Positions 1 through 44,197 are shown, counted from the first letter of the stretch. The stretch: DNA of 64,000 nucleotides from PVC group bacterium (GCA_945890715.1 CAMDCX010000002.1:11869-75868), one strand, 5' to 3'. Program-made: numbers and translations. The notes: generated by a model not told the origin, from the letters alone.

Positions 1-3000
1 ACCGATGCCCTGGGACAGACCGCCACCCTCGAGTATGACCGGTTCGGAAATTCAATACAGGCAACCGATCCGGCTGGTAATGTTGAGATAACACGATATG
101 ACACTAATGGGGTGCATAGTCTTTCGGTTCGGAACAAGCGCGGATATGAGACACGGTATGACTACGATGGCTACGGGAATTGTGTACGCATTACCGATCC
201 TTGTGGCTTTAGCCGACATGCGAGTTTTAACAAGGTTGGCTGGAAGGAAAGTGAATGCGATGAGGCTGGGGTGGTGTCCCGATTCGAGTATGACCGCAAT
301 GGTCGACTGACGGCCTGTGTCAAATCCGCAGGAACACGGGAGGAGGCGATCACGCGGTTCAGCTATGATGGTCGCGGGTTGCCAGTGGAAATGATGGATT
401 CACGCGGAAACCGGGAAGTGACGGACTATGATGCGACAGGACGACCGACTTGCCTGACCGATAAACTGGGAGGGATAACGCTTACGGATTATGATTGGGA
501 TGACAATCCAGTCCGCATTGGCGATCCGCTCGGACAGGTCGCTGAAAATTTCTGCGATGGACGCGGGAATGTCATTCTTCACTTTGACCGCCGGGGCAGT
601 GCGACAACCGTGGCGTATGATGGCAACAATCAACCGGTTTCCAGTGTCGACGCCGGAGGGAATCGCCTTCAAAAAACCTACGATGAAAACGGAAATCTAC
701 TTGCTGAAAAACGGCAGGCTACGGGTTTCCCGGGATGTCTGCCTGGTGAGATTTCGGAACCGGTAACGGTGACTTATACCTATGATGCCCTTAATCGGAT
801 GACTCAAAAGGTCATCGGGGCAGGGCGGCAGGATGCCAGGGTCTATACCACCGACTACGACTCTTCGGGACGAGTGATTCGTGAAACCGATCCACTCGGG
901 AATTCCCTTGCCACCGGATATGACTCTGAAGGGAATCGCACCAATATCAGCCTTTTTGATGCGAGCGGGAGGCTTGTCAGTAGGGAACTGACCTTCTTTG
1001 ATGCGGCCAACCGTCCGGTCACTGTGATCAAGGGATTCGGTGTCGTTACGGCGACGAACTGGAGCGACTATGATGCCCGTGGACTGAAAGTCTCTACGTG
1101 TGATGGGCGGGGGAACAAAACACTGTTTTCGTACGACACTCACCGGCGCCTTATCTCAACCACGGATCCGCTCGGGACTGTTCATTGGGGGAATTATGAC
1201 AGTCTGGGCAATAAGGTCAGGGAGCGCGAGGCTTCCGGGGCGATTACTGAATATGCCTGGGATGCGGCCGGGCGCCTGACGAACACGGTGGTCGGTGTGG
1301 GACTGTCTGATGCCCGGGTGAGCTTCACGTTCCGTGACCGATTGGGACGGGTGGTGCGGGAAACTGATCCGGAGGGATATTCCCTTTCGTGGACCTATGA
1401 TGCCGAAGGGACTGTGCTTACGGAGACCAATTCGCTGGGGTATGTCAAAGTCTTCTTCCCTGATGCGATGGGGCGGGTCACCAATACGGTTGATGAGGCC
1501 GGGGGACAGATCGGGCAGGCTTTGGATGGCAACGGAAAGCTTCGACGGTTCACCGATAAATTGGGGGGCGTTACCGTCTCCGACTATGATGCGTACGGCA
1601 ATCTCGTCAGTCTTACGGATGCGCTTGGGGGACAGGCAAGATGGGCATATGACGGAAACGACACTAAGATCCGGGAAACTGATCCACGAGGATTGATATC
1701 CTCGCTATTTTATGATGCCGCCGGGCGGATGACCAATAAAACGGCCGGGGTCGGACTGGCTGATGTTTCAAGTTCCCGAGTGGTTTACGATGAATTGGGC
1801 CGGGCGGTGAGATCGTTCAATCCGGTCGGCGGGTGCGAGATCCTGCAGTATGACGTCGTCGGAAACTGCATTGCCAGAACGGATCCCCGTGGTGCTGTGA
1901 CCCATTATGAGTATGATGCGTTGAATCGTCAGACGGTCACAGTGGATGCCTTGGGCGGGAAGACCTCGATAACCTATGATGATCGGGGAAATAGTGTGTC
2001 GATGACGGACGCCCTGGGTGGCCTCTCACGCTCGTCTTATGATGCCTATAACCTGAAGCGGAGTTCCACCGACGCGCTGGGCAACACCACGCGATACCAG
2101 TATGACCGGCTGGGTCGCTTGATTGCCACGACGGATCCCCTGGGCGGTGTTGAATCGCGGGCGTATGATGCTGCTGGGAATTGTGTCGCGACAGTGAATA
2201 AGAACGGGGTCCCGTCCTTTTTTGCCTATGATCGTCTTGGACGTGTTACCAACACGACCGATGCCCTAGGCTATCATACCCGGAAGACCTATGATTCCCT
2301 TGGAAACCTGCTTGAGGCTTTTGATAAGCGCGGGAACGGCATGGTTTATCAGGTTGATAAGCTGGGGCGGAGGATAGCGGTGACTGACCCCGCCTCAAAC
2401 ACCCTGTATTTTGCCTATGACGCAGGCGGAAACAAAATTCAGGAATCCATGCCATCCGGGAGAGTGACCACATCAGGGTATGACGGGTTTGGTCGATTGA
2501 TTCTCAAAACCGTGGGAACGGGGGATCGCGAGGCCCGCCAGACACGGTTAGAATATGATTCCGTGGGGCGACTGACGCGGGATATAGATCCGTATGGGTA
2601 TGCCCTTGAACGCCAGTATGACGCCAATGGAAACACGACCAACATCACGGATCGGCGGGGATATTCGACCCGGATGGAATACGACGAACTGAACCGGTTG
2701 ACCAGGACGATTGATGCGCTGGGGAATTCGTCGTCAGTGATGTATGACCGGCTGGGGCGGATTACGGGAACAACCAATCGGCGTGGTGATACAACCCATC
2801 ACTCCTATGATGCGACAGGACGTCTGACGGCCATTCAGGATGCGGAAGGCCATATCACCAGCAACCGGTATGACAAACTGGGGCGATTGTGTGAGGAAAT
2901 GGCCCCTAACGGACGTCGAACCCTAATGAGTTACGATGCGGTGGGGCAGTTGACCAACAAGACCGTGAGCGGTTCCGGTAGCGAGAGCCGGAATCAGAGC

Positions 3001-3603
3001 TATGGATACGATGCCCTGGGCCGGATGTGCCGGGTTACTGATGCGGCGGGTGGGGAAACAATCCTGGATTATGATCCCACTGGGAATGTGATTCAATCGG
3101 CGACTCTGAATCCCTTAGGAAAAGTTCTGAGACGCCGAAGTACGCAGTATGATTCCCGGAATCTCCCTATCCTTGCTTATGATTACTTGGGGAATGCTTG
3201 GCGGACTGACTATGATTCCAGTGGGCGGAAAACGGGGGAAGAGGATCCGCTCGGAAATCGGACGACAACCGGGTTTAACCGTTTCGATGAAATTGTGTCG
3301 GTAACCGATGCGCTGGCTCACCGCACGGAAACCCGGTACGACCGGTGCGGGCGGAAAGTGGAAGTGGTAAACCCTCTGGGACAGCGTACGAGATACCAGT
3401 ATGACCCCAACGGCAACAGAACAGCCGTCATTGATGATAATGGCAATGCCATGCTCTATGCTTTTGATGCTCTGAACCGGGTGTCCGAAATCAATCGCAC
3501 CATGCCATCGGTTCCGGCTGATGTTCTGAAGCGGGCGGATGTAAATGGGGATGGTCGGATTAATGGGGATGATGTGACCACCCTGGACGGGGGACTCCCA
3601 TGA
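1..3603 (+). CDS. RHS/YD-repeat protein, 5'-partial (continues upstream of window); long YD shell with no RHS core/DPxGL motif
   Basis: Frame 1 is open from nt 1 (TDALGQTATLEYDRFGNSIQATDPAGN...), so the listed Met at 112 is internal. There are dozens of YD repeats (YDxxGRxxxxTDPLGN...). The C-terminus carries a DVNGDGRINGDDV calcium-loop/dockerin-like motif. The stop overlaps the next start (ATGA at 3600-3603). Confidence 0.85.
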   Translation, partial: TDALGQTATLEYDRFGNSIQATDPAGNVEITRYDTNGVHSLSVRNKRGYETRYDYDGYGNCVRITDPCGFSRHASFNKVGWKESECDEAGVVSRFEYDRNGRLTACVKSAGTREEAITRFSYDGRGLPVEMMDSRGNREVTDYDATGRPTCLTDKLGGITLTDYDWDDNPVRIGDPLGQVAENFCDGRGNVILHFDRRGSATTVAYDGNNQPVSSVDAGGNRLQKTYDENGNLLAEKRQATGFPGCLPGEISEPVTVTYTYDALNRMTQKVIGAGRQDARVYTTDYDSSGRVIRETDPLGNSLATGYDSEGNRTNISLFDASGRLVSRELTFFDAANRPVTVIKGFGVVTATNWSDYDARGLKVSTCDGRGNKTLFSYDTHRRLISTTDPLGTVHWGNYDSLGNKVREREASGAITEYAWDAAGRLTNTVVGVGLSDARVSFTFRDRLGRVVRETDPEGYSLSWTYDAEGTVLTETNSLGYVKVFFPDAMGRVTNTVDEAGGQIGQALDGNGKLRRFTDKLGGVTVSDYDAYGNLVSLTDALGGQARWAYDGNDTKIRETDPRGLISSLFYDAAGRMTNKTAGVGLADVSSSRVVYDELGRAVRSFNPVGGCEILQYDVVGNCIARTDPRGAVTHYEYDALNRQTVTVDALGGKTSITYDDRGNSVSMTDALGGLSRSSYDAYNLKRSSTDALGNTTRYQYDRLGRLIATTDPLGGVESRAYDAAGNCVATVNKNGVPSFFAYDRLGRVTNTTDALGYHTRKTYDSLGNLLEAFDKRGNGMVYQVDKLGRRIAVTDPASNTLYFAYDAGGNKIQESMPSGRVTTSGYDGFGRLILKTVGTGDREARQTRLEYDSVGRLTRDIDPYGYALERQYDANGNTTNITDRRGYSTRMEYDELNRLTRTIDALGNSSSVMYDRLGRITGTTNRRGDTTHHSYDATGRLTAIQDAEGHITSNRYDKLGRLCEEMAPNGRRTLMSYDAVGQLTNKTVSGSGSESRNQSYGYDALGRMCRVTDAAGGETILDYDPTGNVIQSATLNPLGKVLRRRSTQYDSRNLPILAYDYLGNAWRTDYDSSGRKTGEEDPLGNRTTTGFNRFDEIVSVTDALAHRTETRYDRCGRKVEVVNPLGQRTRYQYDPNGNRTAVIDDNGNAMLYAFDALNRVSEINRTMPSVPADVLKRADVNGDGRINGDDVTTLDGGLP

Positions 3604-6600
3604 GGGTGCCGATCTCCATAACCCGGGTTGTTCTGGCGTTTGGTATTGCCGCCGTGTGGTTGGTTTCAGGAGTTTCGGTCGCGACCCCCGAGTGGTGGAC
3701 GAGTCGAAAGGTTCTTGTCACGAACGCAATTCCGGAAGATTTTGCGCCGGTTCTCCAGGGGCAGGTCTGGTGGTTGGCAACCAATGCCTTCGCTGAATTC
3801 CAAGGGAAAATGCCCGGCGGGGCAGGGGATGAGGTGCAACACTTGATTACAAGCCCGGCGACTAGCAGTGATTTCAGCCCCGTCGCTATCGGACAGTTGA
3901 AGACTGTAGGGGCAGCATTTTACAGGCGTCTGATGGGGGAGGGTGTGGCAACCGGGTATCCGTGGGGGACGGATGATGGGGCTGATTTTGCGCCAGCAAC
4001 GATCGGGCAGGCAAAATCAGTGTTTGGGTTTGATTTGGAGGGTGCGGTATTCAGTCCGTCGATCTCCGGCCAGATTGCCTATCCCGGTTCTCAGCTCGGC
4101 TTGATTCGGGTGGTGGCGGTGCCGGTGGATCGGCCTTGCATCGAAGCGTGGGCGGATATCGCCGAAACAGGCGCCTATCATGTGGTGTCCGGGCGAGGTG
4201 CCGCGACATGGAGGATTGAGGCCTGGCGTGATTCCGATCAAAACGCGAGGCAGGATGCGTGGGAGGCCTGTGGAGAGTATCCGCTCAATCCCCTCACGGT
4301 CACCTCGGTCGTTTCAGGAATTGATCTGGTGTTGTCCGATCCGGATGAGGACGGTGATGGAATTCCAGGTTACCGTGAAATTGAACTCGGGCTTGATCCG
4401 GATTACCCCTTTGATGCCCTGGTTGATGCCGACGGTGATGGATTGTCGTTGGCAGATGAATTTCGGTTCGGATCCGATGCCCTCAAGGGGGATTCCGATG
4501 GGGATGGAATGGGAGATGGCGCTGAGATCCTGAACGAGTTCTCTCCGACGACTGGACACACTCATACTCGTCTTCCGTTCATTGAATCGTTTGAGCTTCC
4601 GGCTATTACCAACGGAATCCTCGCAGGACAAAAACAATGGCTTTCAACCGGAGGGCTTCTTGCGGTTGTATCTACGAATCCGGTGATATCGGGAAGCCAG
4701 ACGCTGTGGCTCCACGCTTCGACTAATACGGGGGCGGCGATTATTCAGCCTTTGGCCACCCATGGATTTGATCGGATCTGGATCGATTATCAGGCAATAC
4801 CCGTTTGGCGTTCAGCCAACAATGCCCCTTTGCCTGCTGCTGGATCCGTCGCTTCATTCTATTTCAACCCATCGGGAAAGATTGTTGTGTATGACAACTC
4901 GTGGCCACCCGGCGAATGGATGACATTGACCAATACCCCGATCCTGTCACGCAACAATGCGGTTCGGTTGACGGTTCAACTCGATTATGGACGCCGTATC
5001 TGGGGGCTGTGGCTCAACGGAACCAACATGCTGAAGGCGCTTCCGTTCGTAGGTGCTACTTCGGAATTGGCCCGGCTCCGGTTTACAGGCGCCTGGTATT
5101 CGGATACGGCCCTTGATCAGATTTCGGTTACGACCAATGCGCCTACAGGATTTGTGGCGGATTCGGATGGCGATGGCCTGCCGGATGATTGGGAATTGGC
5201 AAATGGCTTTGATCCTTATGAGGCGGACGATGCTTCGTCCGATTCCGACCGGGATGGCCTAACCAGCCTTCAGGAGTATACGCTGAACCTTGATCCCCGG
5301 GATTCTGATTCCGACCATGACGGCTGGAATGACGGCGCAGAAGTGGCTCTTGGAAATCCTTCTGTTTATGAGGATCCGAAATGGATGGCGACACTGCCGT
5401 TTGACGAGCCGTTTGAATCCCCGGTTGTGACGAATGGCGATCTTGCGGGACAGCATGGTTGGCTGGTCTCTCAAACCAACTGGGCACTCGTTCAAGGAGA
5501 AAAGCATGTCGGTGGATCTCAGTCTTTGAAATTAACTCCCAAATCAGACGTAACGGAAAACCTCTTCCATGTTGTAAAGGGGCCTTTCGGGGGTATCACT
5601 TGGACGGATTTCTGGGCTATTCCGGTAGGGCGTCAAATCGCGGGGCATCCTGTGATTCAGCCGTCTACCACGGCTTCCTTTTTCATCGACCATGACGGTT
5701 TTCCTGTTGTGCGAGATGGCGCAGAGTGGAAAATTGTGACGAATGCGCCGGTGATATCAGGGACAAATTGGCACCGGTTTACTCTCATGCAGGATTTTTC
5801 AAATTCTGTCTGGAGTTTATGCCTAGATGGCTTTCCTGTGGCTGTCGACCTGAGATTTGCGCATCCCCTCACCCAATATACCGGGGTCAGGGTTTCAGGT
5901 GCCTGCAACGCGGCAACATGGCTGGATGATCTCCATGTGACAACCGTGGCACCGGGGGATATTGATAGTGATGGGGACGGTCTTCCGAATGCCTGGGAAA
6001 TCGCCTACGGCTTCAATCCGAGCGATCCATCGGATGCCTCCGATGATCCTGATTCCGATGGTCTCGCCAATGAGGAAGAGTATCACTTTGGGCTTAATCC
6101 GGTTAACCGTGATACGGATGGCGATGGGATGGGTGACGGGGCTGAAATCATGCGGGGATATTCCCCGACGAATGCGGGATCATTTCGTTGTCTTCCATTT
6201 GCCGAACTCTTTGAGCCGACTGCGGTTACTAACGGTACTCTTGCGGGACAACAGGGGTGGATCGTGGTTTCGTCAAATGCTACGGCGGTGGTTCAGACGG
6301 ACATGGTGTGGGAGGCGACCCAGGCTTTGCAACTGGGCGGGTGTACTTCTCCTGTGTCCATTTTTAATCCCGTGGCGGCTGTGGGAATTCCGGTTGTTTG
6401 GACTGATCTGCGGGCCAAGCCCGTATTCCGGTCAGTGGCTAGCATGCCGGTTCTGGATGCTGCGTCGGTTCTGGGATTATTTGTAAACAAGGAGGGGTAT
6501 GTTGTTGCTCGTGATGGGTGTGATTGGATAACCCTGACCCATCATCAGTCGTTGATGACGAACGTCTGGAGCCGATTTACCACCTGTCAGGACTATGACA

Positions 6601-9600
6601 AAACGAACTGGACGCTTTATGTCAACGGGGAACGGTGGGCGACGAATCTGGCGTTTGCCTGTCCTTCAAAAGAGTATTCCGGGTTTGGGGTGAAAGGGCC
6701 TCTTTATCGCCCCGGGTTTCTGGATGCCGTGATGGTGTCCACCAATCCGCCTCTTGATATTGATATGGACGGGGATGGCCTGCCCGGCGATTGGGAAACC
6801 CTGTATGGTCTTAATCCCGGCAATCCTTCCGATTCATGGGTCGATTCCGATCAGGATGGTCTGTCAAATCTTGACGAATGCCGGCTTGGAACCAATCCCT
6901 GGCTTCGCGATACGGATGGCGATGGGATCGGAGATGGTGCGGAGTTGATTGTGGGCGGAGTGCCATCACTCTCCAATGAGTTTTTCAGATTACCTTTCGT
7001 GGAGGGCTATGAAGCGCCGATGGTGATTTCGGGAAATCTTGTTTGCCAGAATGGGTGGCTGGCGAGTGGGTCGAATGCGGTGATGGTTCAGTCGAATTGT
7101 GTTTTTGAGGGAATCCAGGCCCTGGCGCTGGGATCCACCGGAATGGCAACTCATGTTTTTGCCAGCGACGGGGCACCGGTGGTTTGGATTGATTTTCAGG
7201 CGAGGCTGGCTCGTCGGCTTACCCAAGCGGAACCTATCATCAGTTCCAATTCTGCATCGGCATTTTTCATAAATTCGTCTGGTCTGCTGGTCCTTTCCGG
7301 GAAGGCTTCCAGCACACAACGATGGGACGTTCTGTCCAGTCATGTTCCGGTGACGACGGGGCAATGGATCCGGTTAACGGCGTGTTTGAACTACCCTGCG
7401 CAGCGATGGTCCCTCTGGCTGAACGGAGTGCGTGTGGCCAGTGAGCTTTGCTTTGCCAATCCTGTTGTCGAGTTCTCCCGGGCTCAATTCCATGGCCCCG
7501 CCTTATCGGTCGCCACTCTGGATAACCTTGCCATCACCACGAACGAACCGCCAGGGCTCGACACCGATGGCGATGGGTTGCCGAATGCCTGGGAAATCGC
7601 CCATGGCTTTGATCCGTCTGATCCGTCTGATTCGTCGGATCCTGACTGTGATGGGCTCACCAATTTTGAGGAATATCAACTAGGGCTGGATCCGTGTGAC
7701 CCTGACACCGACCACGATGGCCTTGTGGATGGCCATGACGGGATCATGCCGATGGGGCTTTTCCCCGCCGGGGTTGATGTTACTGGAGACGGTTTTGCCG
7801 ATGGCGAATCAGATTTTGGGTGTGATCCGTTGCTGGATGACAGTGATCAGGATGGCATTACGGATGGCGAGGAAGTCAGGATGGGGCTGGATCCGTGCCA
7901 TTCCACAATCGGGCAGGGATTAGCGGCCTGGTACAAACTTGATGAAACCAATGGAATCATGATTGCGGATAGCTCGCCGAATCATCGTGGCGGTGAATGG
8001 GTTGGAGCCGGAAGTGTCACCGGGACGGTGGGGCGGATGGATGGGGCACTGCAATGTGATGGCCGTGGGGACGGGGTCATGATTGCAACGACCAATCTGC
8101 TTGATCTAAATACAAATTTTACGATTTCCGTTTGGGTCTGCCCGGATTCCCGTGGAACGAATCCAGTCCAAGTTATTGTGTCGCAGGGAAGTGCAGGGGC
8201 GATGGTGCTTAATCAAGGCAAGCCTGAATTCAGAGTTTTGAATGTTCCGACTGGATTAGTGGCATGTGCCGCGAGTCTTCCTGCAAGGGCCTGGACCCAT
8301 GTGGCTGTAGTCCGTGAGGGTGATGTCGTCTCTCTTTTTGTGGAGGGTAAGACGGTGTCTTCAAATCGGGTTTCGGGGACTGTTCCGGGCACGGCCGCGT
8401 TGTGGGGTCTTGGCTATAATCCCGGTCTGGCTTCCCAGTATTTTGCCGGGGGGTTGGATGATGTCCGCCTTTATCATCGTGCCCTTGCGGCGGGAGAGAT
8501 TCAGGAACTAGTTGTGCTGGGCGGAGATTTTGACGGGGACACGGTTGGAAATAAAGAGGAATTGAGGTCCGGTGCCGATCCCTTTTCCTCCCCGCTTCCG
8601 GCGGTCATGGCTGGTGATCTTGATGGAGATGGGCGCGTGACCGGCCGTGATCGCGATCGCTTGGTCGCTTTAGCGGATGAGATGACGCGCGATGTGACAC
8701 GATTCAGTTATGATGCTGAGGGGAATGTGACGCGTAAGGTGGATGCAATGGGGAATGCCACCGAGATGACTTATAACCGGAATAACCGGCTTCTGGGCAC
8801 ACGGGATGCGAATGGTCATCTTCAGCTCAACGAAATCGATAGCATGGGCGCCGTGGTGGCGACAACGGATGCGATGAGCGCACTCACGCGATTTGATTAT
8901 GATGGTTTCGGATCCGTGATTCAGGTGACTGATGCGGTCGGAAAAGCGACCCGGATGGAATATAACCTGCTCGGGCAGGTTGTCCGGACTGTCAATTCGC
9001 GCGGAACCGCCCAGGTCACCTTGTATGACGACCTCGGGCGTGTGGAGTGTGTGGTTGCCGCCGCCGGGACGCCCGAGGAACAGCGCTCGTGGTCGTACTA
9101 TGATGCGGGCGACAATCTGGTCAGCAACCGGAATAATATCGGCGTCATCAATGAGTACCAGTATGACGCTTGCGGGAAAATGGTGAAACAGATTCTGGCG
9201 CGCGGAACCTCCGGGGAGAAGGTTGATGAAACCATCTATGATGCCCGCGGACTGGCGGTCAGTCGTAAGGATTCCCGGGGTTATTGGTCCCATGTGGGCT
9301 ATGACGCTCTCGCGCGCCAGGTGAGTACAACGGATGCCCTGGGCCATGTTTCGCAGGAGCTGTATGACAATCTTGGGAATGTGATTTCCAGTATCCAGCC
9401 CAATGGCCGGACGGTTCAGACGGATTATGACAAGTGGGGCCGGGCTGTTCGGGTACGGGATGGAAATGACATTACCGAAACCGGCTATGATGTGCTTGAT
9501 CGTGTTGTTTCCAAAACGGATTGGCGCGGAATTCGAGCGGCCAATTTTTATGATGCCGTGGGCAATCTCACGAACGCGGTCGAGGCACTGGGCACACCCG

Positions 9601-12600
9601 AACAATCCGGAACGGTGACAGTCTATGATGCGGGCAACCGCCCGGTTCGCAGGGTGAATGCCAACGGTGGTTCTGTGGTGACTGCCTATGATGCGTTGGG
9701 CAACAAGACGTCCTTTACGGACGAATTGGGGTATGTCAGTCGCTGGACTTATGCCCATGGGAAACGGCTTGAAGGATATTCCCTGCCCGACGGTACGGGG
9801 GTCACCCATCACTATGATGCCTTGGATCGTTTGGTAGAGGTGCGGGTAAATGGTACGGCGCAACAGGCGTATGCGTATGACGGGGTATCCCGACTGACGA
9901 ATTCGATCGATTACAACCAAGCTGGTTCGGCAGATGATAGTGTTGTGGCCTACGACTATGATGCTCTCAACCGGGTTGTTGAGGAGCGTCAAAATGGAAA
10001 AAGAATTCAACGCCAGTTTGATACGGGGGGGCACGCTGTGGCGGTGACTTATCCTTCCGGCTTTGTGTTGAAACGGTCATTTGACGCCAAGGGTCGTCTT
10101 GCAGGCCTAAAAAACGAGGACGGCACGACGACCTATTCCGCCTATGCTTATACACCCAATTCCCGAATCCAGACTATCACGTATGGAAACGGGGTGGTGG
10201 AAACGCATGGACTGGATTCCCGGGAGCGATTGCAGACGCTGTTTCAGCAGGGAATTCACTGTGATCTGCGGGCCACATTGGCGCGGGATCCCGGTGGGAA
10301 TGTGACGCTGTGCTCCCAAAACGGGGGCGCAGGGGATGTGTTCATGTATGATTCCCTGAGCCGGGTTGTAGCGCGAAAAAACCTGAGCAACGTGTTTGAG
10401 GAATCGCTCCGGTATGATGCTCTTGGAAATTGGTTGTCCACATCCAATCCGGTTGAAGGGTCTGTTTCCCGTTCGGTAAATGTCGGCAATCAGTATGACC
10501 AGATCGGGGCGCAATCGCTCCGGTATGATTTGAACGGAAGCCTGACTAATTGGAACAACCGAAATTTTATTTATGACTATCTGGCACGGCTTGTGGAGGT
10601 TCGGTCGAATGGACAGGTGATTGCCCGGTACCGTTATGATGCCGCAAATCGTCGTGTCGGCAAGGATACCGTTGCAGGTCATCAGGCCTACTACTATGAC
10701 GGGGATACCCTTATTGATGAATCGACGAATGAGGCCTGGACTCGAAGCACCATTCACGGGGGCACTTTGGATACACCGGTGGCCATGGTGAGCGGCGGGG
10801 CGACATTCTATTATTTGAGGGATTGGCGGGCTAATATCGCCGCTCTTATCGATTCAGGGGGAACTCCCGTTGAAAGCTACCAGTATTCCCTTTTTGGCCG
10901 GATGACGGTAGTGAACGCCGAGGAAAATCCGGTTCAGCAAAGCGGGTTCGGCACGATCTGGACCTTTGCCGGACGCCAGTGGGATGCCGAAACAGGGTTG
11001 ATGCACAACCGGAACCGGACTTACTCGGCTGAACTGGGCCGGTTCCTCCAGCGCGATCCTGCGGGGTATGTCGATGGAATGAATCTTTATGCCTATGCAG
11101 GAAATAATCCGTTGCTGTTCTCAGACCCGTATGGATTGTACCGGTGGAGTCATGGTGCGCTGGATAGCCGTGTTGGCGACTGGATATTCGAGCAATACGG
11201 ACAAGTTCGTGAAATGGAGCGGCAGCGACGGGAGTATGAGGAGGCGCTTCGCCAGGCCGAGGAGGAGCGTCAGCGAATTGAACAGGAAAACGAGTATGCG
11301 GCTCGTGCCTTCAACCAGTACAAGAACGCGCATGTCGGCGAAATCAAGACTATGGTCGGGAAGTATCGCCACTTGGGGGTGAACGAGAACGAGGCGGCAC
11401 AGCTTCTCATGAGCGGGATCAGCTCGATTCCCAGGCTCGGGGCAACGGTGGGACCCAATGACACCCGGCGAGGCTGGTGGCTGGATTATTACCTGCGCGG
11501 CGGCCAGGTCAATACCACCATGCGTGACGAGATGCGCAGCGCGGGGGTCGGGACGGTGGATGAGTTTTTTGCGAAGACCTCCCAAAAGGAAACCGCATTG
11601 CGGGATAAACGGAAGGCTACGCAGCAGCAATATACCATGGCGGCCGTGGCGATTGTGGCCACGGTGGTAACCTGCGGGGCGGGTGGGGTCTTGGGGGCCG
11701 CGTTACTCGGAACCGTGGGGGTCACGGCAACCACCGCGTCGTTCGGCGCCTTTGTTGCAGGGGCAGTAGCGATTCAAGGGGTGTCGGCCGCCGCCACGAC
11801 GATGATCTCGCATGGCAATCTCAGTGACTTCGCCCAGTCATGGGCGATCAACTCTGCAGCTAGTGTGGCGGGGTATGGGGCTGGTTATTCAGCGGCCAAG
11901 GCGGGTGCGGATCTCAATATCCAATTGGCGACCCAATCGGCCGCGAGCACCTTTGTGTCGTCAGGCTCCCGTGCCACATTGGCGGGTGAGGGCTTTAAAA
12001 ATGTGTTCCGGGATACGGCGATCAGCTTTGTGGCCGGAGGCATGATGGGAACATTCATGAAGGCGGAGGGAACTGGTTCGGTGCCTGCCAATTTTGGTGA
12101 GTATGTGAATAATGGGGCATCATCCTCGTTCGGATATCTACATTCCCCGCTTTCAGGAGGGGTTCAAGGTTCGCTGCATGCCGCGGTATATGGTGGAAAT
12201 ATGGTGGAGGCCTTTGGCGAGGGCTCAATTTCAAAGGAGGCCTTGACGAGTTATCTGATGGCTTCAGAAGTGTCGCAGGCTGCGAAATGGATGTCGGATC
12301 AGCTTGTCTCAGCACTTCCCAATGCGCCACGTCAGACGGCTCAATCCCGTGAATGGAAGGCGACTCCGGCGGCCGTCCATTCGGATAATTCGGTTAAGCG
12401 GATGGAGAACTCACAATCCTGGCAATCCCGGATGAGGAATGCGGCGATTGGAAGTGTGGTCACTGTGGCCAGTCATCTGGAGGAAATCATCGTGGCACCA
12501 GCCCGGGCGGTCTCGGAAATCTATTCAACTATGACGGCAGAGTCCTGGAAGATTCGGTCGCATGTGATCAATCCGTTTTCAAGAAGTTTTGCGGGGTATC

Positions 12601-13313
12601 AGATTCTGGATAAAGCCACGGATGCTGCACAGGTTGCCGCAGGCCTCCCCATCAGTTTTCTGTCCGGCGATTTCATGGATGTTCAGAAATCTGGGGCGAT
12701 GACCTTGGATGCGCGACGAAAACTCGTGACCTTCAACGGGATGTTTAATGACAGTGCGGATGCCGCCAAAATGAGAGATGTCACCCGCCGGCAGTTTTCG
12801 GTGAGTGATTCCGCGCATATTGCCAATCGATCCGCTTTTTATGGGATTGGGGATGTCCTTCAAGTATTAGGAAATGAGTTTGGGTTGATTGACATCACCG
12901 CGATCAGAGGTGCTGCGGCGTTGCGGCAAGCCTCTGCCACACCGGGGTCGATCAATGTGGTGGCTCACAGTCAGGGAAGCATGACCTTCCGGCGTGCGCT
13001 CGATCTGGTGGATGAGCCGTCTGTCCGGGGACGGATTGCCTATCAGGGGTATGGTCCTGAGATTAATATCAGTCAAAGTTATCTGGGGCTTCAGTCTGCT
13101 CAGAACTTCTGGAATCAGGAGAAGGGCGGCGCCCAACGTTTTGATCGGGTTCCCCAGGCCAATTATTTTCCTTTGCCCGCCAGAATCATGGGCGATCCTT
13201 TTATGATGCAAGGTTCTACGGAATGGCAAGTTGTGGATTCCCCGGGAAATCGGCTTGTCCCGGGCGGAAATAGACATGGGTATCAGGATTATTATGGAGG
13301 GTATGCCTACTAA
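3600..13313 (+). CDS. Giant (3,237 aa) secreted/surface RHS polymorphic toxin: signal anchor, TSP3 repeats + 4 beta-sandwich modules, LamG, YD shell, RHS core, long C-terminal toxin region
   Basis: N-terminal hydrophobic segment VVLAFGIAAVWLVSGVSVA. Repeated DxDxDGxxDxxE (thrombospondin type-3-like) blocks. LamG_3-like segment ending GGLDDVRLYHRALAAGEIQEL. YD repeats from about nt 8700. RHS core signature RTYSAELGRFLQRDPAGYVDGMNLYAYAGNNPLLFSDPYGL. Confidence 0.9.
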   Translation: MRVPISITRVVLAFGIAAVWLVSGVSVATPEWWTSRKVLVTNAIPEDFAPVLQGQVWWLATNAFAEFQGKMPGGAGDEVQHLITSPATSSDFSPVAIGQLKTVGAAFYRRLMGEGVATGYPWGTDDGADFAPATIGQAKSVFGFDLEGAVFSPSISGQIAYPGSQLGLIRVVAVPVDRPCIEAWADIAETGAYHVVSGRGAATWRIEAWRDSDQNARQDAWEACGEYPLNPLTVTSVVSGIDLVLSDPDEDGDGIPGYREIELGLDPDYPFDALVDADGDGLSLADEFRFGSDALKGDSDGDGMGDGAEILNEFSPTTGHTHTRLPFIESFELPAITNGILAGQKQWLSTGGLLAVVSTNPVISGSQTLWLHASTNTGAAIIQPLATHGFDRIWIDYQAIPVWRSANNAPLPAAGSVASFYFNPSGKIVVYDNSWPPGEWMTLTNTPILSRNNAVRLTVQLDYGRRIWGLWLNGTNMLKALPFVGATSELARLRFTGAWYSDTALDQISVTTNAPTGFVADSDGDGLPDDWELANGFDPYEADDASSDSDRDGLTSLQEYTLNLDPRDSDSDHDGWNDGAEVALGNPSVYEDPKWMATLPFDEPFESPVVTNGDLAGQHGWLVSQTNWALVQGEKHVGGSQSLKLTPKSDVTENLFHVVKGPFGGITWTDFWAIPVGRQIAGHPVIQPSTTASFFIDHDGFPVVRDGAEWKIVTNAPVISGTNWHRFTLMQDFSNSVWSLCLDGFPVAVDLRFAHPLTQYTGVRVSGACNAATWLDDLHVTTVAPGDIDSDGDGLPNAWEIAYGFNPSDPSDASDDPDSDGLANEEEYHFGLNPVNRDTDGDGMGDGAEIMRGYSPTNAGSFRCLPFAELFEPTAVTNGTLAGQQGWIVVSSNATAVVQTDMVWEATQALQLGGCTSPVSIFNPVAAVGIPVVWTDLRAKPVFRSVASMPVLDAASVLGLFVNKEGYVVARDGCDWITLTHHQSLMTNVWSRFTTCQDYDKTNWTLYVNGERWATNLAFACPSKEYSGFGVKGPLYRPGFLDAVMVSTNPPLDIDMDGDGLPGDWETLYGLNPGNPSDSWVDSDQDGLSNLDECRLGTNPWLRDTDGDGIGDGAELIVGGVPSLSNEFFRLPFVEGYEAPMVISGNLVCQNGWLASGSNAVMVQSNCVFEGIQALALGSTGMATHVFASDGAPVVWIDFQARLARRLTQAEPIISSNSASAFFINSSGLLVLSGKASSTQRWDVLSSHVPVTTGQWIRLTACLNYPAQRWSLWLNGVRVASELCFANPVVEFSRAQFHGPALSVATLDNLAITTNEPPGLDTDGDGLPNAWEIAHGFDPSDPSDSSDPDCDGLTNFEEYQLGLDPCDPDTDHDGLVDGHDGIMPMGLFPAGVDVTGDGFADGESDFGCDPLLDDSDQDGITDGEEVRMGLDPCHSTIGQGLAAWYKLDETNGIMIADSSPNHRGGEWVGAGSVTGTVGRMDGALQCDGRGDGVMIATTNLLDLNTNFTISVWVCPDSRGTNPVQVIVSQGSAGAMVLNQGKPEFRVLNVPTGLVACAASLPARAWTHVAVVREGDVVSLFVEGKTVSSNRVSGTVPGTAALWGLGYNPGLASQYFAGGLDDVRLYHRALAAGEIQELVVLGGDFDGDTVGNKEELRSGADPFSSPLPAVMAGDLDGDGRVTGRDRDRLVALADEMTRDVTRFSYDAEGNVTRKVDAMGNATEMTYNRNNRLLGTRDANGHLQLNEIDSMGAVVATTDAMSALTRFDYDGFGSVIQVTDAVGKATRMEYNLLGQVVRTVNSRGTAQVTLYDDLGRVECVVAAAGTPEEQRSWSYYDAGDNLVSNRNNIGVINEYQYDACGKMVKQILARGTSGEKVDETIYDARGLAVSRKDSRGYWSHVGYDALARQVSTTDALGHVSQELYDNLGNVISSIQPNGRTVQTDYDKWGRAVRVRDGNDITETGYDVLDRVVSKTDWRGIRAANFYDAVGNLTNAVEALGTPEQSGTVTVYDAGNRPVRRVNANGGSVVTAYDALGNKTSFTDELGYVSRWTYAHGKRLEGYSLPDGTGVTHHYDALDRLVEVRVNGTAQQAYAYDGVSRLTNSIDYNQAGSADDSVVAYDYDALNRVVEERQNGKRIQRQFDTGGHAVAVTYPSGFVLKRSFDAKGRLAGLKNEDGTTTYSAYAYTPNSRIQTITYGNGVVETHGLDSRERLQTLFQQGIHCDLRATLARDPGGNVTLCSQNGGAGDVFMYDSLSRVVARKNLSNVFEESLRYDALGNWLSTSNPVEGSVSRSVNVGNQYDQIGAQSLRYDLNGSLTNWNNRNFIYDYLARLVEVRSNGQVIARYRYDAANRRVGKDTVAGHQAYYYDGDTLIDESTNEAWTRSTIHGGTLDTPVAMVSGGATFYYLRDWRANIAALIDSGGTPVESYQYSLFGRMTVVNAEENPVQQSGFGTIWTFAGRQWDAETGLMHNRNRTYSAELGRFLQRDPAGYVDGMNLYAYAGNNPLLFSDPYGLYRWSHGALDSRVGDWIFEQYGQVREMERQRREYEEALRQAEEERQRIEQENEYAARAFNQYKNAHVGEIKTMVGKYRHLGVNENEAAQLLMSGISSIPRLGATVGPNDTRRGWWLDYYLRGGQVNTTMRDEMRSAGVGTVDEFFAKTSQKETALRDKRKATQQQYTMAAVAIVATVVTCGAGGVLGAALLGTVGVTATTASFGAFVAGAVAIQGVSAAATTMISHGNLSDFAQSWAINSAASVAGYGAGYSAAKAGADLNIQLATQSAASTFVSSGSRATLAGEGFKNVFRDTAISFVAGGMMGTFMKAEGTGSVPANFGEYVNNGASSSFGYLHSPLSGGVQGSLHAAVYGGNMVEAFGEGSISKEALTSYLMASEVSQAAKWMSDQLVSALPNAPRQTAQSREWKATPAAVHSDNSVKRMENSQSWQSRMRNAAIGSVVTVASHLEEIIVAPARAVSEIYSTMTAESWKIRSHVINPFSRSFAGYQILDKATDAAQVAAGLPISFLSGDFMDVQKSGAMTLDARRKLVTFNGMFNDSADAAKMRDVTRRQFSVSDSAHIANRSAFYGIGDVLQVLGNEFGLIDITAIRGAAALRQASATPGSINVVAHSQGSMTFRRALDLVDEPSVRGRIAYQGYGPEINISQSYLGLQSAQNFWNQEKGGAQRFDRVPQANYFPLPARIMGDPFMMQGSTEWQVVDSPGNRLVPGGNRHGYQDYYGGYAY
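4335..7900 (+). repeat. Four tandem ~800-nt intragenic modules (TSP3 Ca-binding linker + ~190-aa beta-sandwich-like domain)
   Basis: Module starts LPFIESFELPAITNGILAGQKQW (4572), LPFDEPFESPVVTNGDLAGQHGW (5394), LPFAELFEPTAVTNGTLAGQQGW (6192), LPFVEGYEAPMVISGNLVCQNGW (6990). Spacing is 822/798/798 nt. Each module ends LDxxxVTTNxP followed by DSDGDGLPxxWE...DSDxDGLxNxEE...DTDGDGxGDGAE. Confidence 0.85.
7915..8515 (+). other. LamG/concanavalin-like lectin domain within the giant protein
   Basis: GLAAWYKLDETNG...FTISVWVCPD...WTHVAVVREGDVVSLFVEGK...GGLDDVRLYHRALAAGEIQEL follows the Laminin_G_3 pattern. Confidence 0.7.
8700..11138 (+). other. YD-repeat shell plus RHS-associated core ending at the predicted autoproteolysis motif DPYGL (11124-11138)
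   Basis: RFSYDAEGNVTRKVDAMGN... repeats run through RYRYDAANRRVGK, then ...GRFLQRDPAGYVDGMNLYAYAGNNPLLFSDPYGL. Confidence 0.85.
11139..13310 (+). other. 724-aa C-terminal variable (toxin) region: charged coiled coil, Gly/Ala-rich hydrophobic segment, C-terminal alpha/beta-hydrolase (putative lipase/esterase)
   Basis: EMERQRREYEEALRQAEEERQRIEQENEY (about 11210-11320). AAVAIVATVVTCGAGGVLGAALLGTVGVTATTASFGAFVAGAVAIQGV (about 11631-11810). Nucleophile elbow INVVAHSQGSMTF with the Ser codon at 12969-12971. Confidence 0.55.
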
Positions 13314-13314
13314 C

Positions 13315-13833
13315 ATGAAAAAGAGGACTCAGTTGACAGGACGGGGTTATGGGGCGGTGCTGGCCGCAATGGCCCTGGTATTTTCCGGTGGATGTGTATC
13401 GGGAAATTATGATCTTTCCCTTACCCCGCCCTATCAAGAGCAAGTGGGGGCTGACTATGAGTTGGCAGAAGACAGCTATATTGTCACCCTCCGGGAAATG
13501 GATGAACTCTTTTTGATCAACCGATGCAGTGCCTTTAGTCAGCCCTTTCCTGTTGATTCCCAGTATATGGGGAAAAGCACACAGGACATCAACATCAAGG
13601 GGGTGATTCCCAAGGGAACGGTATTAAAGGTGACAGCCATCCGGGGCTCCGAGTCGTTTGACGCCGGGCGTACGGTGGAGTTTTTTCTCGAAATGGGCCG
13701 TGCCGCGACGGAGCCACGGCTTCGATTGAATGCCTGCTTTTTAGAGGAGCGAGAAGGCGCGGTATACCGCTTGGATGGAAAAGCTTTCATTCAACGGGGT
13801 GTGGGTGACAAGTCGGGTAGCGGGAAATTGTAA
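13315..13833 (+). CDS. Small lipoprotein (172 aa), candidate cognate immunity protein
   Basis: The ATG at 13315 lies 1 nt after the toxin stop codon (TAA 13311-13313). Signal peptide with a lipobox-like MKKRTQLTGRGYGAVLAAMALVFSGGC. I recognised no family. The earlier Met at 13231 would overlap the toxin by 83 nt and was not used. Confidence 0.6.
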   Translation: MKKRTQLTGRGYGAVLAAMALVFSGGCVSGNYDLSLTPPYQEQVGADYELAEDSYIVTLREMDELFLINRCSAFSQPFPVDSQYMGKSTQDINIKGVIPKGTVLKVTAIRGSESFDAGRTVEFFLEMGRAATEPRLRLNACFLEEREGAVYRLDGKAFIQRGVGDKSGSGKL

Positions 13834-13845
13834 AGAGGGAAGACG

Positions 13846-14919
13846 ATGAAATTGAATATTAATCGGGTCGTGTTGTTGATGATGATAGTGGTATGCGGGC
13901 GATGCCTTGCCTGGACTGATCTAAGTGGGGGTGATCATGGGGGCAGCAATTGGGTCATTGCCGGTGGCGCCACAATCGCCAATAATCATTACGGTATTGG
14001 AATGATGACTATCAGTTCAGGGATGACGGTTTCTGTAAAAGGGTGGGATGGTTCCGCGTACGGAGGGGTTTCTATCAGCGCCAACGACATCCGGATTGAC
14101 GGGGTGTTGGATGCATCCGGAGCAGGTTATACAGGAGGAAATGGAGGGAATGGTGGATTCGGGTCTGCTTCCATCGGAGCTTCTGGAGGATCGGGAGGGA
14201 CCGGGTCCCCGGGATCCGGTCCGTTTGGGGGCAGTGGCGGGGTTTCGGGGAGCGGGGGATATGATTCAGGAAATCCCGCTTTGACCAGACCTGGTTGGCC
14301 CGGTGGGTACGGCGGGATGGGGGGGTATGCCACCAGCGGAATGCAGGGTGATGCCACCACCAATGATGCTGTATTGATGGGTGGTGGTGGTGGCGGGGGC
14401 GCCGGGGGCGGGGCGGGATGGAATCTACTAGGGACAACCTCAGGTGGGGGCGGCGGGGCTGGCGGAAATCCGGGTGCTGGCTGGATCAAGTTGTATGCAA
14501 CCAATACGATTGTGGTGCGAGGAACAGTTCAGGCCAAGGGACTCGCAGGAGCCAGGCAGAATGGCGGGACTGGGCAGACTCAGATGCCGGCTGCTCAAGG
14601 CGGAAATATGGGGTCCTCCACAGTCGCGGGGCAAAGTCTTGGCGGCTCCGGCGGCGCTTCCATCCCGGCGCAATGTTATCCGGCCGGGCTGGGCGGCAAT
14701 GGCGGCGCGGGCGCGGGCGGCGGTATTCTTTTGCAGGCCAGCACCGTGGACACGCTCGGTGGAAATCTTGACAACCGGGGCGGCGGGAATTCCCTGGTGA
14801 ATGGCGGAACCCTGAAGATCATCTATATCACGCTCCAAGGAGGGAGCTATACCAATACCGGCCGAACCTATCTGCAACAACTCATGCCACCGGAGCCGGG
14901 GACGGTGTTTGAATTTTGA
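13846..14919 (+). CDS. Glycine-rich secreted protein (357 aa), function unknown
   Basis: Signal peptide MKLNINRVVLLMMIVVCGRCLAWT. Central ~200 aa are dominated by GGxGG runs (GGNGGNGGFGSAS..., MGGGGGGGAGGGAGW...). Both ends have beta-strand-like rungs (VSISANDIRIDGVLDASG, GGTLKIIYITLQGG). The gene starts 12 nt after the lipoprotein gene. Confidence 0.6.
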   Translation: MKLNINRVVLLMMIVVCGRCLAWTDLSGGDHGGSNWVIAGGATIANNHYGIGMMTISSGMTVSVKGWDGSAYGGVSISANDIRIDGVLDASGAGYTGGNGGNGGFGSASIGASGGSGGTGSPGSGPFGGSGGVSGSGGYDSGNPALTRPGWPGGYGGMGGYATSGMQGDATTNDAVLMGGGGGGGAGGGAGWNLLGTTSGGGGGAGGNPGAGWIKLYATNTIVVRGTVQAKGLAGARQNGGTGQTQMPAAQGGNMGSSTVAGQSLGGSGGASIPAQCYPAGLGGNGGAGAGGGILLQASTVDTLGGNLDNRGGGNSLVNGGTLKIIYITLQGGSYTNTGRTYLQQLMPPEPGTVFEF

Positions 14920-32061: not shown

Positions 32062-33197
32062 TGCGGAAAACGCCCACCATATTAGTGGGCATCGTTCTTT
32101 TGTTGCTGGCGCTGGGCATCGTTATGTTGGCCAGCGCCAGTTCTGTTAAAGGGAACGCTGTCTACAAGGACGCGAACTACTTCCTGATCCGGCAGCTGGT
32201 CTGGTTGGCGGCGGCTCTTGTGGCGGGCGGAATTACGGCGTCCATCGATTATCACCGCTGGCCCCGCTGGTGGATTCCCATCTCGGTTTTTGCGGGATTG
32301 TTTTTAGTGCTTGTTCTGATTCCCCATGTGGGCGTCAAGATCAACGGGAGCTACCGCTGGCTCAGGATCGGAAGCTTCAGCGCCCAGCCTTCCGAGTTTT
32401 CAAAGTTTGCCATGGTGATCATGATGAGCACCTGGATGGCCAAAAGTGGAGCCAGAAGCGGAACCTTCCGGGAGGGAGTTCTCAAGCCGGGGTTGTTGCT
32501 GGGGCCGTTGTTAGGGCTTGTTTTTCTGGAGCCGGATTATGGAACCACCATTCTGCTTGCCGTGGTGGGATGTTCCATCATGTTTTCCGGGGGGAGTCCC
32601 CGCCGGTATCTGGCCTTGGGCATCGTGGTCGGACTTATTGGATTTGCGTTTGCCGTCATGCATGATCCGGTTCGGGCGGGACGAATTCTGGCGTTTATTG
32701 AGCCGGATAAATATCCGGCAGCGGCGTACCATCTTCAGCAGTCTGAGCAGGCGTTTACGCTGGGCGGAGTCTGGGGCGTTGGCCTGGGGGAGAGTCTTCA
32801 GAAACATTTCTACCTTCCTGAAGCGCACACGGATTTCATTCTGGCCATTATTGGGGAAGAATTGGGGTTGGCGGCCACCGTTCTCGTGGTTCTTCTTTTT
32901 GCGGGATTTTTGGCGTGCGGAACGGTGATCAGTTTTCAGGCACCCGATCCTATTGGACGGTTGATGGGGCTCGGGTTTACCTTGATGACGGCGATCCAGG
33001 CCACAATCAATGTGGGAGTGGTGACCGGATGTCTTCCCACCAAGGGGTTGGCTCTGCCGTTCATCAGTTACGGCGGTTCCAGCCTTATTGTCTCGATGAT
33101 GGGGGTCGGGGTTTTGTTGAACATCGCCCGTCAGGGTGTGGTGACAGAGGAACGCGCTGTTAATCTGGCGGTTCGGGACAAGGGTCGCTGGCTGTAG
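32058..33197 (+). CDS. ftsW: SEDS-family peptidoglycan glycosyltransferase FtsW
   Basis: Polytopic FtsW/RodA pattern (QPSEFSKF, PEAHTDFI, LPTKGLALPFISYGGSS), in dcw context. The start overlaps the upstream stop. Confidence 0.88.
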   Translation: MMRKTPTILVGIVLLLLALGIVMLASASSVKGNAVYKDANYFLIRQLVWLAAALVAGGITASIDYHRWPRWWIPISVFAGLFLVLVLIPHVGVKINGSYRWLRIGSFSAQPSEFSKFAMVIMMSTWMAKSGARSGTFREGVLKPGLLLGPLLGLVFLEPDYGTTILLAVVGCSIMFSGGSPRRYLALGIVVGLIGFAFAVMHDPVRAGRILAFIEPDKYPAAAYHLQQSEQAFTLGGVWGVGLGESLQKHFYLPEAHTDFILAIIGEELGLAATVLVVLLFAGFLACGTVISFQAPDPIGRLMGLGFTLMTAIQATINVGVVTGCLPTKGLALPFISYGGSSLIVSMMGVGVLLNIARQGVVTEERAVNLAVRDKGRWL

Positions 33198-33227
33198 TAA
33201 GGGCAAGGGAACCACGATATGAGGTGA

Positions 33228-42802: not shown

Positions 42803-42832
42803 TTGATTGCATGGTTTTTTGCGTGGTATACA
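42803..42832 (+). promoter_or_regulatory. Candidate promoter for the hexokinase gene (extended -10)
   Basis: TTGATT (42803-42808), 18-nt spacer, TGgTATACA (-10 at 42827-42832). An upstream inverted repeat CCCGGGTAAA...TTTAACCCGGG lies in the divergent region. Confidence 0.35.
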
Positions 42833-42854
42833 GAGCCACCTGTTTGGAGGAAAA

Positions 42855-44189: not shown

Positions 44190-44197
44190 ATTCGATC

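Follow-up and report, generated by a model that had tools for sequence, protein, structure and literature searches.

A two-part 724-residue tail with a predicted alpha/beta-hydrolase domain in a secreted RHS protein of a PVC group bacterium

By present understanding, an RHS shell is a sealed container whose cargo is a small, unfolded toxin of 15-30 kDa, and a tail of 78 kDa tests the limits of that arrangement. Such a tail is encoded in a 64-kb stretch of genomic DNA from a PVC group bacterium (freshwater Verrucomicrobiota/Kiritimatiellia), hereafter the window, where the second of two adjacent RHS genes (open reading frame 2, ORF2, on a contig of a metagenome-assembled genome (MAG) held in NCBI/ENA) runs on for 724 residues past the DPYGL motif that closes its Rhs core. 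Here we ask what this tail is made of, whether an RHS shell could accommodate it, and what it might do. An earlier reading of the window from its letters alone (the sequence-only reading) had drawn attention to the tail, and its claims are taken up below where the evidence bears on them.

ORF2 is an RHS polymorphic toxin, in that respect of a kind already known. New to bacterial RHS systems are a conserved module of ~400 aa, helical and hydrophobic, that separates the predicted cleavage site from the toxin; a family of hydrolase toxins, as yet uncurated, together with a matching family of likely lipoprotein immunity proteins; and a cargo of roughly three times the capacity of known shells, adjoining a possible TcB-like partner. 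We propose, at a probability of about 0.55, that the tail is the two-part payload of a Sec-exported RHS toxin, in which a helical membrane-insertion module is linked to a Ser-Asp-His hydrolase, with a lipoprotein protecting the producer. No description of RHS systems in Kiritimatiellia, or of such a composite tail, was found in the literature, and near-identical relatives of ORF2 are annotated merely as "RHS repeat-associated protein".

Layout and conservation of the tail

The features of ORF2 on which the argument rests are as follows:

3600-13313, plus strand: ORF2, a 3237-aa secreted RHS protein; stop codon TAA at 13311-13313
10884-11138, plus strand: Rhs-associated core (aspartyl autoprotease plug), matched by TIGR03696 and ending PLLFSDPYGL
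11139-11633, plus strand: helical head, tail residues 1-165, delimited by AlphaFold2 confidence and ortholog identity
11634-11804, plus strand: candidate hydrophobic hairpin of 57 aa, tail residues 166-222, delimited by hydropathy and conservation
11805-12323, plus strand: small-residue region, tail residues 223-395, rich in Ser, Ala and Gly and predicted to be helical
12324-12449, plus strand: hypervariable linker, tail residues 396-437
12450-13310, plus strand: candidate toxin domain, tail residues 438-724, of an uncurated alpha/beta-hydrolase family

ORF2 opens with a signal-like hydrophobic segment of Sec type, followed by four ~270-aa TSP3 modules, a LamG_3 domain (aa 1487-1635), the RHS shell (~aa 1640-2513) and the tail, as delimited with Pfam and NCBIfam models; ~1640 aa of additional N-terminal domains therefore stand ahead of the shell. 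RHS/YD repeats are matched by PF05593 (E 1.3e-41) and TIGR01643 (E 3.5e-32), and the best structural-sequence alignment of the 878-aa shell region is with P. protegens RhsA (7q97, E 2e-45). The NCBIfam model TIGR03696 (Rhs_assc_core) matches aa 2429-2513 over its entire length (profile positions 1-76 of 76; 75.4 bits against a cutoff of 32.5), and the DPYGL that closes the core, at nt 11124-11138, fits the motif PxxxxDPxGL. The two putative catalytic Asp residues, D2486 and D2509, are spaced by 23 residues, as are those of the catalytic pair D1141/D1164 in Tse5 (PMC10684867), and cleavage of ORF2 is predicted after L2513 (nt 11138).

The reading frame and the TIGR03696 match together confirm the in-frame tail of 724 aa that the sequence-only reading had placed after DPYGL (nt 11139-13310, a single frame). 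Its computed mass is 77.9 kDa, with 41.9 kDa in the N-terminal module (residues 1-395) and 31.3 kDa in the C-terminal domain (438-724). An exhaustive profile search over 1.84 billion representative proteins recovered full-length proteins of 3187-3275 aa that share this tail (P0005, P0006 and P0007), and the same unbroken layout, with tails of 713-727 aa, is found in no fewer than 20 orthologs, drawn from MAGs of Verrucomicrobiota/Kiritimatiellia and from metagenomes. A straight read from the shell through DPYGL into the tail is seen in L005-L015, which are 11 species-representative MAG contigs of uncultured Verrucomicrobiota/Kiritimatiellia and unclassified bacteria with sample names that suggest freshwater lakes; in six metagenome contigs (L024-L027, L029 and L030); and in P0001, P0006 and P0007. 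The metagenome fragments P0001-P0004 are ORFs running off contig ends and not distinct genes. A fusion artefact with an internal stop or hidden gene boundary, which the sequence-only reading had held open, is ruled out by the at least 20 independent contigs that read through. Recent horizontal acquisition of the tail was also considered and rejected, there being no GC break beyond the effect of its Gly and Ala codons.

Identity to the window's tail was computed per segment for 14 orthologs, and over the whole tail it is 51-66% in the nine more distant ones. The candidate hairpin is the most conserved segment (84-100% in 12 of the 14, 65-79% in the two most distant), the head, the small-residue region and the C-terminal domain ranging over 57-98%, 47-95% and 41-94%, respectively. 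Between module and C-terminal domain, the linker falls to 5-31% in orthologs whose whole-tail identity is 51-77%, and it is virtually unconserved outside the closest relatives; AlphaFold2 predicts no secondary structure for it, and it is probably disordered. The linker divides the tail into two parts. That these are separable follows from P0021 (3476 aa), in which a 31%-identical module is succeeded by an unrelated C-terminal domain of ~290 aa; a metagenome scan for further toxin types behind the module returned hydrolase-type orthologs and one truncated allele only. The tail is thus a modular composite of two parts, and the composite character first proposed from sequence is borne out both by segment conservation and by this separability.

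Within the head, an invariant YRWSHG start leads into a charged amphipathic helix (residues 10-64) and a small helical domain containing WWLDYYLRGG, and a conserved KRK flank closes the segment; its invariant residues recur in P0021. AlphaFold2 models residues 10-156 as a long amphipathic helix and a small helical domain with a predicted local distance difference test score (pLDDT) of 68-90, and the hydrophobic moment of the head helix exceeds that of shuffled sequences. The charged stretch EMERQRREYEEALRQAEEERQRIEQENEY (tail residues 25-53), formerly called a coiled coil, does lie within one long, confidently predicted helix, and the sequence of helix 10-64 is compatible with heptads; the coiled coil itself is unproven.

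The Gly/Ala/Val/Thr-rich hydrophobic stretch noted in the sequence-only reading is likewise present, at tail residues 166-222, where the Kyte-Doolittle 19-residue mean peaks at 1.97, and its first helix, at 1.97-2.1, is in the transmembrane range. The glycine-zipper spacing ascribed to it does not rise above shuffled sequences, with 9 small-xxx-small spacings observed against 11.7 +/- 1.9 and one GxxxG against 1.2. The segment can be read as two helices with the uncharged turn GTVGVTATT between them, and the conserved KRK cluster lies on its N-terminal side. The region that follows (223-395) is weakly amphipathic, with a mean hydrophobic moment of 0.20 compared with 0.16 +/- 0.02 in shuffles, and carries the conserved motifs GFKNVFRDTAISF and GGVQGSLHAAVYGGNM.

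The module found no matching family in Pfam or the PDB, profile search included. For PT-TG, the pre-toxin model to which the hydrophobic stretch had been tentatively related, there was no Pfam match at E <= 1 with eight module sequences and none in a whole-protein scan, and that suggestion was dropped; the other Pfam pre-toxin models did not match the tail either. Comparison of the tail and module with solved structures, including Tse5 and SGS1, found no sequence homology, and a Foldseek search with the module model gave no match below E 2.8, a result made meaningless by the model's pLDDT of 49. Because the hairpin, its flanks and its position are so extremely conserved, we infer that residues 1-395 constitute a lineage-specific membrane-insertion or delivery module.

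A truncated natural allele of the tail occurs in two different metagenomes (L031 1985-2569 and L032 5001-5585). It is 91% identical through residue 172, breaks exactly where the hydrophobic hairpin starts (…YTMAAVAI/DGNSCISL…stop) and is followed by unrelated genes of 143, 130 and 433 aa, and it looks like the product of an insertion or recombination event.

The hydrolase domain and the genes behind it

The predicted active site and the two genes downstream of ORF2 are located as follows:

12735-12740, plus strand: candidate oxyanion residues N533-G534, mostly conserved in the family
12969-12971, plus strand: predicted nucleophile Ser611 in AHSQG (VVAHSQGS), invariant
13143-13145, plus strand: predicted acid Asp669 in FDRVP (family motif D-x-V-P), conserved
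13275-13277, plus strand: predicted catalytic His713 in GGNRHGY (family motif G-N-x-H-x-F..YY), conserved
13315-13833, plus strand: 172-aa lipoprotein, candidate immunity protein, with signal peptide and lipobox-like FSGGC, beginning one base past the toxin stop
13846-14919, plus strand: 357-aa Gly-rich secreted protein ending ...PEPGTVFEF, found also at L001 3138-4223, L010 3371-4501 and L027 3471-4586

In alignments of the hydrolase family, S611, D669 and H713 are invariant across 24 members and at least 90% conserved across 76, and they follow the canonical order of nucleophile, acid and His. In the elbow A-H-S611-Q-G, S and G never vary among the 76 members, and H and Q hardly do; D511, N563, D572, Q575, E580, G637/G639 and N656 are further conserved positions. 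The elbow Ser and the His of GGNRHGY had already been singled out in the sequence-only reading, which had looked for the acid in VVDSPG; that Asp (D700) was rejected as the catalytic acid, being Gln in several orthologs, and D669 is conserved instead.

An AlphaFold2 model of the domain shows alternating strands and helices, in which a strand (model residues 175-181) runs into a helix (184-195) with S611, model residue 182, at the turn; a helical N-terminal subdomain (residues 438-500) is an addition to the hydrolase. The structural searches of the tail in pieces that had been suggested gave nothing usable for the module and led, weakly, to alpha/beta-hydrolases for this domain. Against the PDB, Foldseek returned almost exclusively cutinases, acetylxylan esterase, lipases and thioesterases (E 8e-3 to 1e-1, TM-scores 0.3-0.45), and against BFVD the top match was a DUF676 protein (E 8.6e-5), with further alpha/beta-hydrolases and LysB esterases ranking behind it. 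Among PDB sequences searched by profile, the AHSQGG elbow of Geobacillus lipases was matched. The sub-threshold Pfam matches of family members were overwhelmingly to alpha/beta-hydrolases (DUF676, Tle3, Palm_thioest, Cutinase, DUF900, Lipase_2 and Abhydrolase_6), the only families that recurred across members. From alignments and model, the alpha/beta-hydrolase fold class and the predicted triad Ser611-Asp669-His713 are well supported. The domain would be an esterase or lipase-like toxin, with phospholipid as its most likely substrate.

Minimal alpha/beta-hydrolases such as cutinases, acetylxylan esterase, mycobacteriophage LysB and DUF676/PGAP1-like proteins share with the domain a core of ~200-230 aa and the Ser-Asp-His order, but at only 8-16% identity, and none of their profiles exceeds threshold. 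Alpha/beta-hydrolase toxin domains of polymorphic toxins are already known as Tox-ABhydrolase-1/2/3 (Zhang et al. 2012, PMC3482391). These and the Tle1-4/Tli pairs resemble the ORF2 system in the GxSxG elbow, the C-terminal place in polymorphic toxins and exported immunity; compared by description only, the immunity proteins of Tox-ABhydrolase-2/3 are SUKH, Imm66 and Imm69, whereas no Pfam model matches the lipoprotein at 13315-13833. Tle3 (PF24322) matched only weakly, in 8 of the 24 and 6 of the 76 members (best E 4e-4) and not in the window protein, and no Pfam match to other Tle-family lipase models (e.g., DUF2235 and Lipase_3) appeared.

The hydrolase domain is far more widespread than the long tail. 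Only a handful of the 209 significant representative matches to the tail span all of it; more than 140 are confined to residues ~440/490-720, and about nine in ten of these sit at the extreme C-terminal end of the carrier. In other RHS proteins the domain stands directly after DPxGL, in tails of 272-345 aa (P0010, P0025, P0031, P0100 and L016), L016 being a typical orphan cassette of core fragment, toxin and lipoprotein. Carriers were found in Elusimicrobiota, Desulfobacteraceae, Planctomycetales and a melainabacterial MAG (Obscuribacterium), and some hold another toxin domain (RES in P0046, a sub-threshold Ntox10 in P0041); for non-RHS members, Pfam gave almost nothing on delivery context. 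An uncurated alpha/beta-hydrolase toxin family of ~200 representative clusters from several phyla is hereby defined, its members having been annotated as "hypothetical" or "RHS repeat-associated protein".

Homologs of the lipoprotein lie directly 3' of the toxin domain in L003, L005-L009, L012 and L016-L025. These proteins of 150-190 aa all carry a signal peptide and a Cys and accompany not only the closest orthologs but also architecturally unrelated carriers (L016-L023), in contexts that include Elusimicrobiota, Desulfobacteraceae, Planctomycetales and Obscuribacterium. Single-sequence phmmer comparison within a small local set gave E 8e-8 to 6e-5, and with a family profile a homolog was located behind the toxin gene in the window and in 18 loci. 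Because its pairing with the toxin domain persists across such distant delivery contexts, the lipoprotein is likely the hydrolase's cognate periplasmic immunity protein, and a family of such lipoproteins is newly delineated, its members too having carried no annotations beyond those given above for the toxin family. An immunity protein that is exported implies in turn a toxin acting outside the cytoplasm, as in Tle/Tli pairs. One Elusimicrobia toxin gene is followed by two tandem lipoprotein paralogs (L021 6651-7166 and 7105-7686).

In the Gly-rich protein, which begins with a signal peptide, the N-terminal AWTDLxGGDHGGSNWVIAGG domain is conserved, GGxG occurs in long runs, and the C-terminus resembles an outer-membrane beta-signal; the protein matches no Pfam or NCBIfam model. 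Its gene lies downstream of the toxin in the window and, among the long-tail orthologs, in all loci that reach far enough, either directly or after the lipoprotein gene and usually directly where the latter is missing, and it is absent beside the hydrolase domain in other lineages. The product could be an accessory factor or a second immunity protein. Downstream of the Gly-rich gene in L001, a further Rhs core fragment begins at 4312-4506 (…YYYGHRYYFPGMGRWMSRDPIEEKG…), which suggests an array of orphan toxin cassettes.

Packaging, delivery and competing explanations

How might such a tail be carried? Solved single-chain Rhs shells (Tse5, RhsA and Rhs1) have cavities of ~32,000-35,000 cubic angstroms for 15-16 kDa of cargo (PMC10684867), and the larger Tc cocoons hold ~30 kDa (PMC8765631). 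Set against these cargoes, the payload is far above the usual Rhs/TcC size, as the sequence-only reading had maintained in asking, legitimately, how it is packaged. At 1.21 cubic angstroms per Da the tail requires ~94,000 cubic angstroms and the module alone ~51,000, so full encapsulation of 78 kDa in a standard single-chain shell is implausible. Since the volume of the tail is about three times that of the cavity, either part of it would lie outside or the cocoon would have to be larger.

The first arrangement has a precedent in mosquito SGS1 (PDB 8fjp), which continues for 631 aa past its autoprotease site; ~230 aa of predicted transmembrane helices are stored in the shell, and the chain exits through an opening to leave the Tox-SGS domain outside (PMC9935623). 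Like ORF2, SGS1 exceeds 3000 aa and combines receptor domains on an Rhs/YD shell with an aspartyl-protease site and a long tail, and that tail likewise places hydrophobic or predicted transmembrane helices first, then a linker, then a separate toxin-like domain of ~300 aa. The resemblance is architectural only: the tails have no sequence similarity, and only the Rhs core aligns (E 3e-6). Moreover, the SGS1 shell is a fused cocoon of Tc BC type with beta-propellers, whereas the 878-aa shell of ORF2 is nearest to single-chain RhsA; and the six predicted transmembrane helices, furin site and Tox-SGS of SGS1 contrast with one candidate hairpin, a variable linker, a predicted alpha/beta-hydrolase and a candidate bacterial lipoprotein immunity gene at the ORF2 locus.

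For the second arrangement, the adjacent RHS gene is of interest:

1-3603, plus strand: ORF1, of which the 3' two-thirds lie in the window; its stop codon overlaps the ORF2 start (ATGA)

The full gene, present in L033 (4227-10004), encodes 1925 aa with a signal peptide, DUF6531 and RHS repeats over most of its length; it has no Rhs core and no toxin and ends in a dockerin-like Ca-binding tail. No Pfam match suggestive of a beta-propeller gate was seen in ORF1. In L033 the gene is preceded by those for a 226-aa TSP3-repeat protein and an 89-aa ORF. Tc toxins enlarge their cocoon by joining two RHS proteins, and ORF1-ORF2 resemble TcB-TcC in being adjacent RHS genes, overlapping at stop and start, of which the first is core-less and the second carries core and cargo. 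By this analogy, ORF1 could act as a TcB-like partner of ORF2. Unlike in Tc systems, both proteins have Sec signals and no TcA-like gene was seen in the window; the ~30 kDa capacity of a Tc cocoon would about suffice for the hydrolase domain (31.3 kDa) and is too small for 78 kDa. The core-less partner gene and the SGS1 precedent had been missed by the sequence-only reading, as had the variable linker, the conservation of the hairpin and the lipoprotein gene.

Type VI secretion system (T6SS) Rhs effectors (RhsA 7q97, Rhs1/Tre23, Tse5 and Tse15) share with ORF2 a homologous shell, an autoprotease core, a polymorphic C-terminal toxin and an adjacent immunity gene. ORF2 differs in having a Sec signal, TSP3 repeats and LamG in place of PAAR/VgrG/T6SS context, and its hydrophobic region is C-terminal to the cleavage site and is not an N-terminal prePAAR transmembrane domain. 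Neither T6SS genes (VgrG, PAAR and Hcp) nor a type V secretion system (T5SS) partner nor Tc or TcA-like genes were seen in the 64-kb window.

In the explanation that we favour, ORF2 would be exported and would cleave itself after L2513, with the RHS shell keeping the module soluble by analogy with the predicted transmembrane helices of SGS1 and with Tse5-CT. The module would then insert as a hairpin into the membrane of a target cell and so place the hydrolase in the target envelope, where it would cut an ester-linked component, most likely phospholipid, while the downstream periplasmic lipoprotein would protect the producer. It is also conceivable, if rather doubtful, that the 78-kDa tail uses a packaging mode undescribed in bacteria, either SGS1-like, with the module inside, the linker passing through the wall and the hydrolase outside, or by means of an enlarged cocoon of ORF1 and ORF2, a Sec-dependent TcB/TcC analogue without TcA.

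Several observations weigh against this explanation. The hydrolase model, built on a 12-sequence alignment, is of moderate quality (mean pLDDT 62, predicted TM-score 0.68, core 70-89), none of its PDB matches in Foldseek reaches E 1e-3, and the domain in the window passes the threshold of no Pfam or NCBIfam model. As to substrate, alpha/beta-hydrolases also include peptidases and thioesterases. The model of tail residues 157-437 is helical at a pLDDT below 40, so that the role of the module is read from composition and conservation. Most members of the hydrolase family have no hydrophobic segment upstream of the hydrolase, which rules out that segment as an intrinsic part of the family, and P0021, the sole example of the module with a different toxin, has no strongly hydrophobic hairpin. 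Within a Sec substrate, a hydrophobic hairpin would be expected to halt transfer at the producer's own membrane. In about half of the long-tail orthologs (L001/L013, L002, L010, L011, L014, L015, L026, L027, L029 and L030) the lipoprotein gene does not adjoin the toxin, with triads intact. Finally, the tail is roughly three times too large for the cavities of solved shells.

The main rival to a delivery role for the module is a pore-forming one. Residues 1-395 would then be a pore-forming or depolarising toxin in the style of Tse5-CT or a colicin hairpin, the hydrolase a second toxin, and the Gly-rich protein possibly the immunity or neutralising partner of the pore-former. The exceptional conservation of the hairpin and its build, with two hydrophobic helices, an uncharged turn and charged flanks, would suit such an activity, and a precedent exists in Tse5, which keeps a hydrophobic, membrane-active pore-former in its shell (PMC10684867). 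The Gly-rich gene, moreover, tracks the long-tail toxin even where the lipoprotein is missing and is not found beside the hydrolase elsewhere, and proteins with several toxin domains, such as the RES and Ntox10 carriers above, exist in the family. The module, however, resembles neither Tse5 nor colicins nor any PDB chain in sequence or profile, it has no glycine-zipper periodicity, its version in P0021 is not hydrophobic, and the signal peptide and beta-signal-like end of the Gly-rich protein fit an outer-membrane or accessory role equally well; we consider this account unlikely. Less probable again is that the hairpin works in the producer, as a stop-transfer and re-insertion pair tethering ORF2 to the inner membrane with shell and hydrolase in the periplasm, so that the tail would not be a delivered payload of the usual sort. 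A Sec-type signal, a first hairpin helix with transmembrane hydropathy and the lack of any dedicated secretion system (T6SS, T5SS partner or TcA) in the window all agree with such an anchor. That topology would nevertheless put the KRK flank in the periplasm and a turn devoid of positive charge in the cytoplasm, contradicting the positive-inside rule; an intact autoprotease would cut the anchor off the shell, and in other contexts the toxin domain is paired with the lipoprotein in the manner of a mobile toxin/immunity cassette.

A role outside antagonism altogether, which we hold to be just as improbable as the anchor, would make the hydrolase a surface-displayed degradative esterase, acting for example on acetylated or esterified polymers from an adhesin-like RHS scaffold with LamG and TSP3, and the lipoprotein its regulator or chaperone. 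The fold neighbours do include cutinases, acetylxylan esterase and LysB-type esterases, domains of carbohydrate-binding type stand upstream, and the lipoprotein is missing in half of the orthologs. Such a role is hard to square with a domain that lies behind an Rhs autoprotease core, recurs in orphan core-fragment cassettes, is C-terminal in about nine in ten family members and sometimes occurs with RES, or with its tight cross-phylum pairing with a small lipoprotein, which is a toxin/immunity signature. The proposal of a membrane-inserting module that delivers a linked hydrolase is the one that we retain.

Wider locus and implications

Within ORF2, the region upstream of the LamG domain (window ~4570-7600, aa ~325-1330) consists of four tandem ~270-aa modules, each pairing TSP3 Ca-binding repeats with an uncharacterised domain that opens with the conserved motif LPFxExFE(x)5TNGxLAGQxGW and matches no Pfam model. 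The genes surrounding the RHS locus are chromosomal housekeeping genes, among them the dcw cluster, ilvC and lon. In the dcw cluster, a MurD-type Mur ligase (29860-32058) carries three C-terminal LysM domains, a fusion that is to our knowledge unusual. Matches to Hexokinase_1 and Hexokinase_2 (42807-44186; E 1e-51 and 3e-58) and to Glycogen_syn PF05693 (20054-21883, minus strand; E 2e-210) were also found in the window; these Pfam families are mainly eukaryotic. About 30 kb from the RHS locus are genes for a CsgG-like lipoprotein (41767-42726, minus strand) and a 963-aa protein with an inverse-autotransporter beta-domain (44186-47074).

The lineage of ORF2 provides a bacterial counterpart to SGS1, until now the single, eukaryotic example of this architecture. 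It could show how Sec-exported RHS toxins of diderm bacteria that have no T6SS cross the membranes of their targets. If ORF1 and ORF2 were to co-assemble, they would form a new two-component cocoon, in principle for large cargo; and if either of the two packaging modes holds true, the payload would carry its own means of crossing membranes, and ORF2 would be a self-delivering RHS toxin independent of T6SS and Tc machinery.

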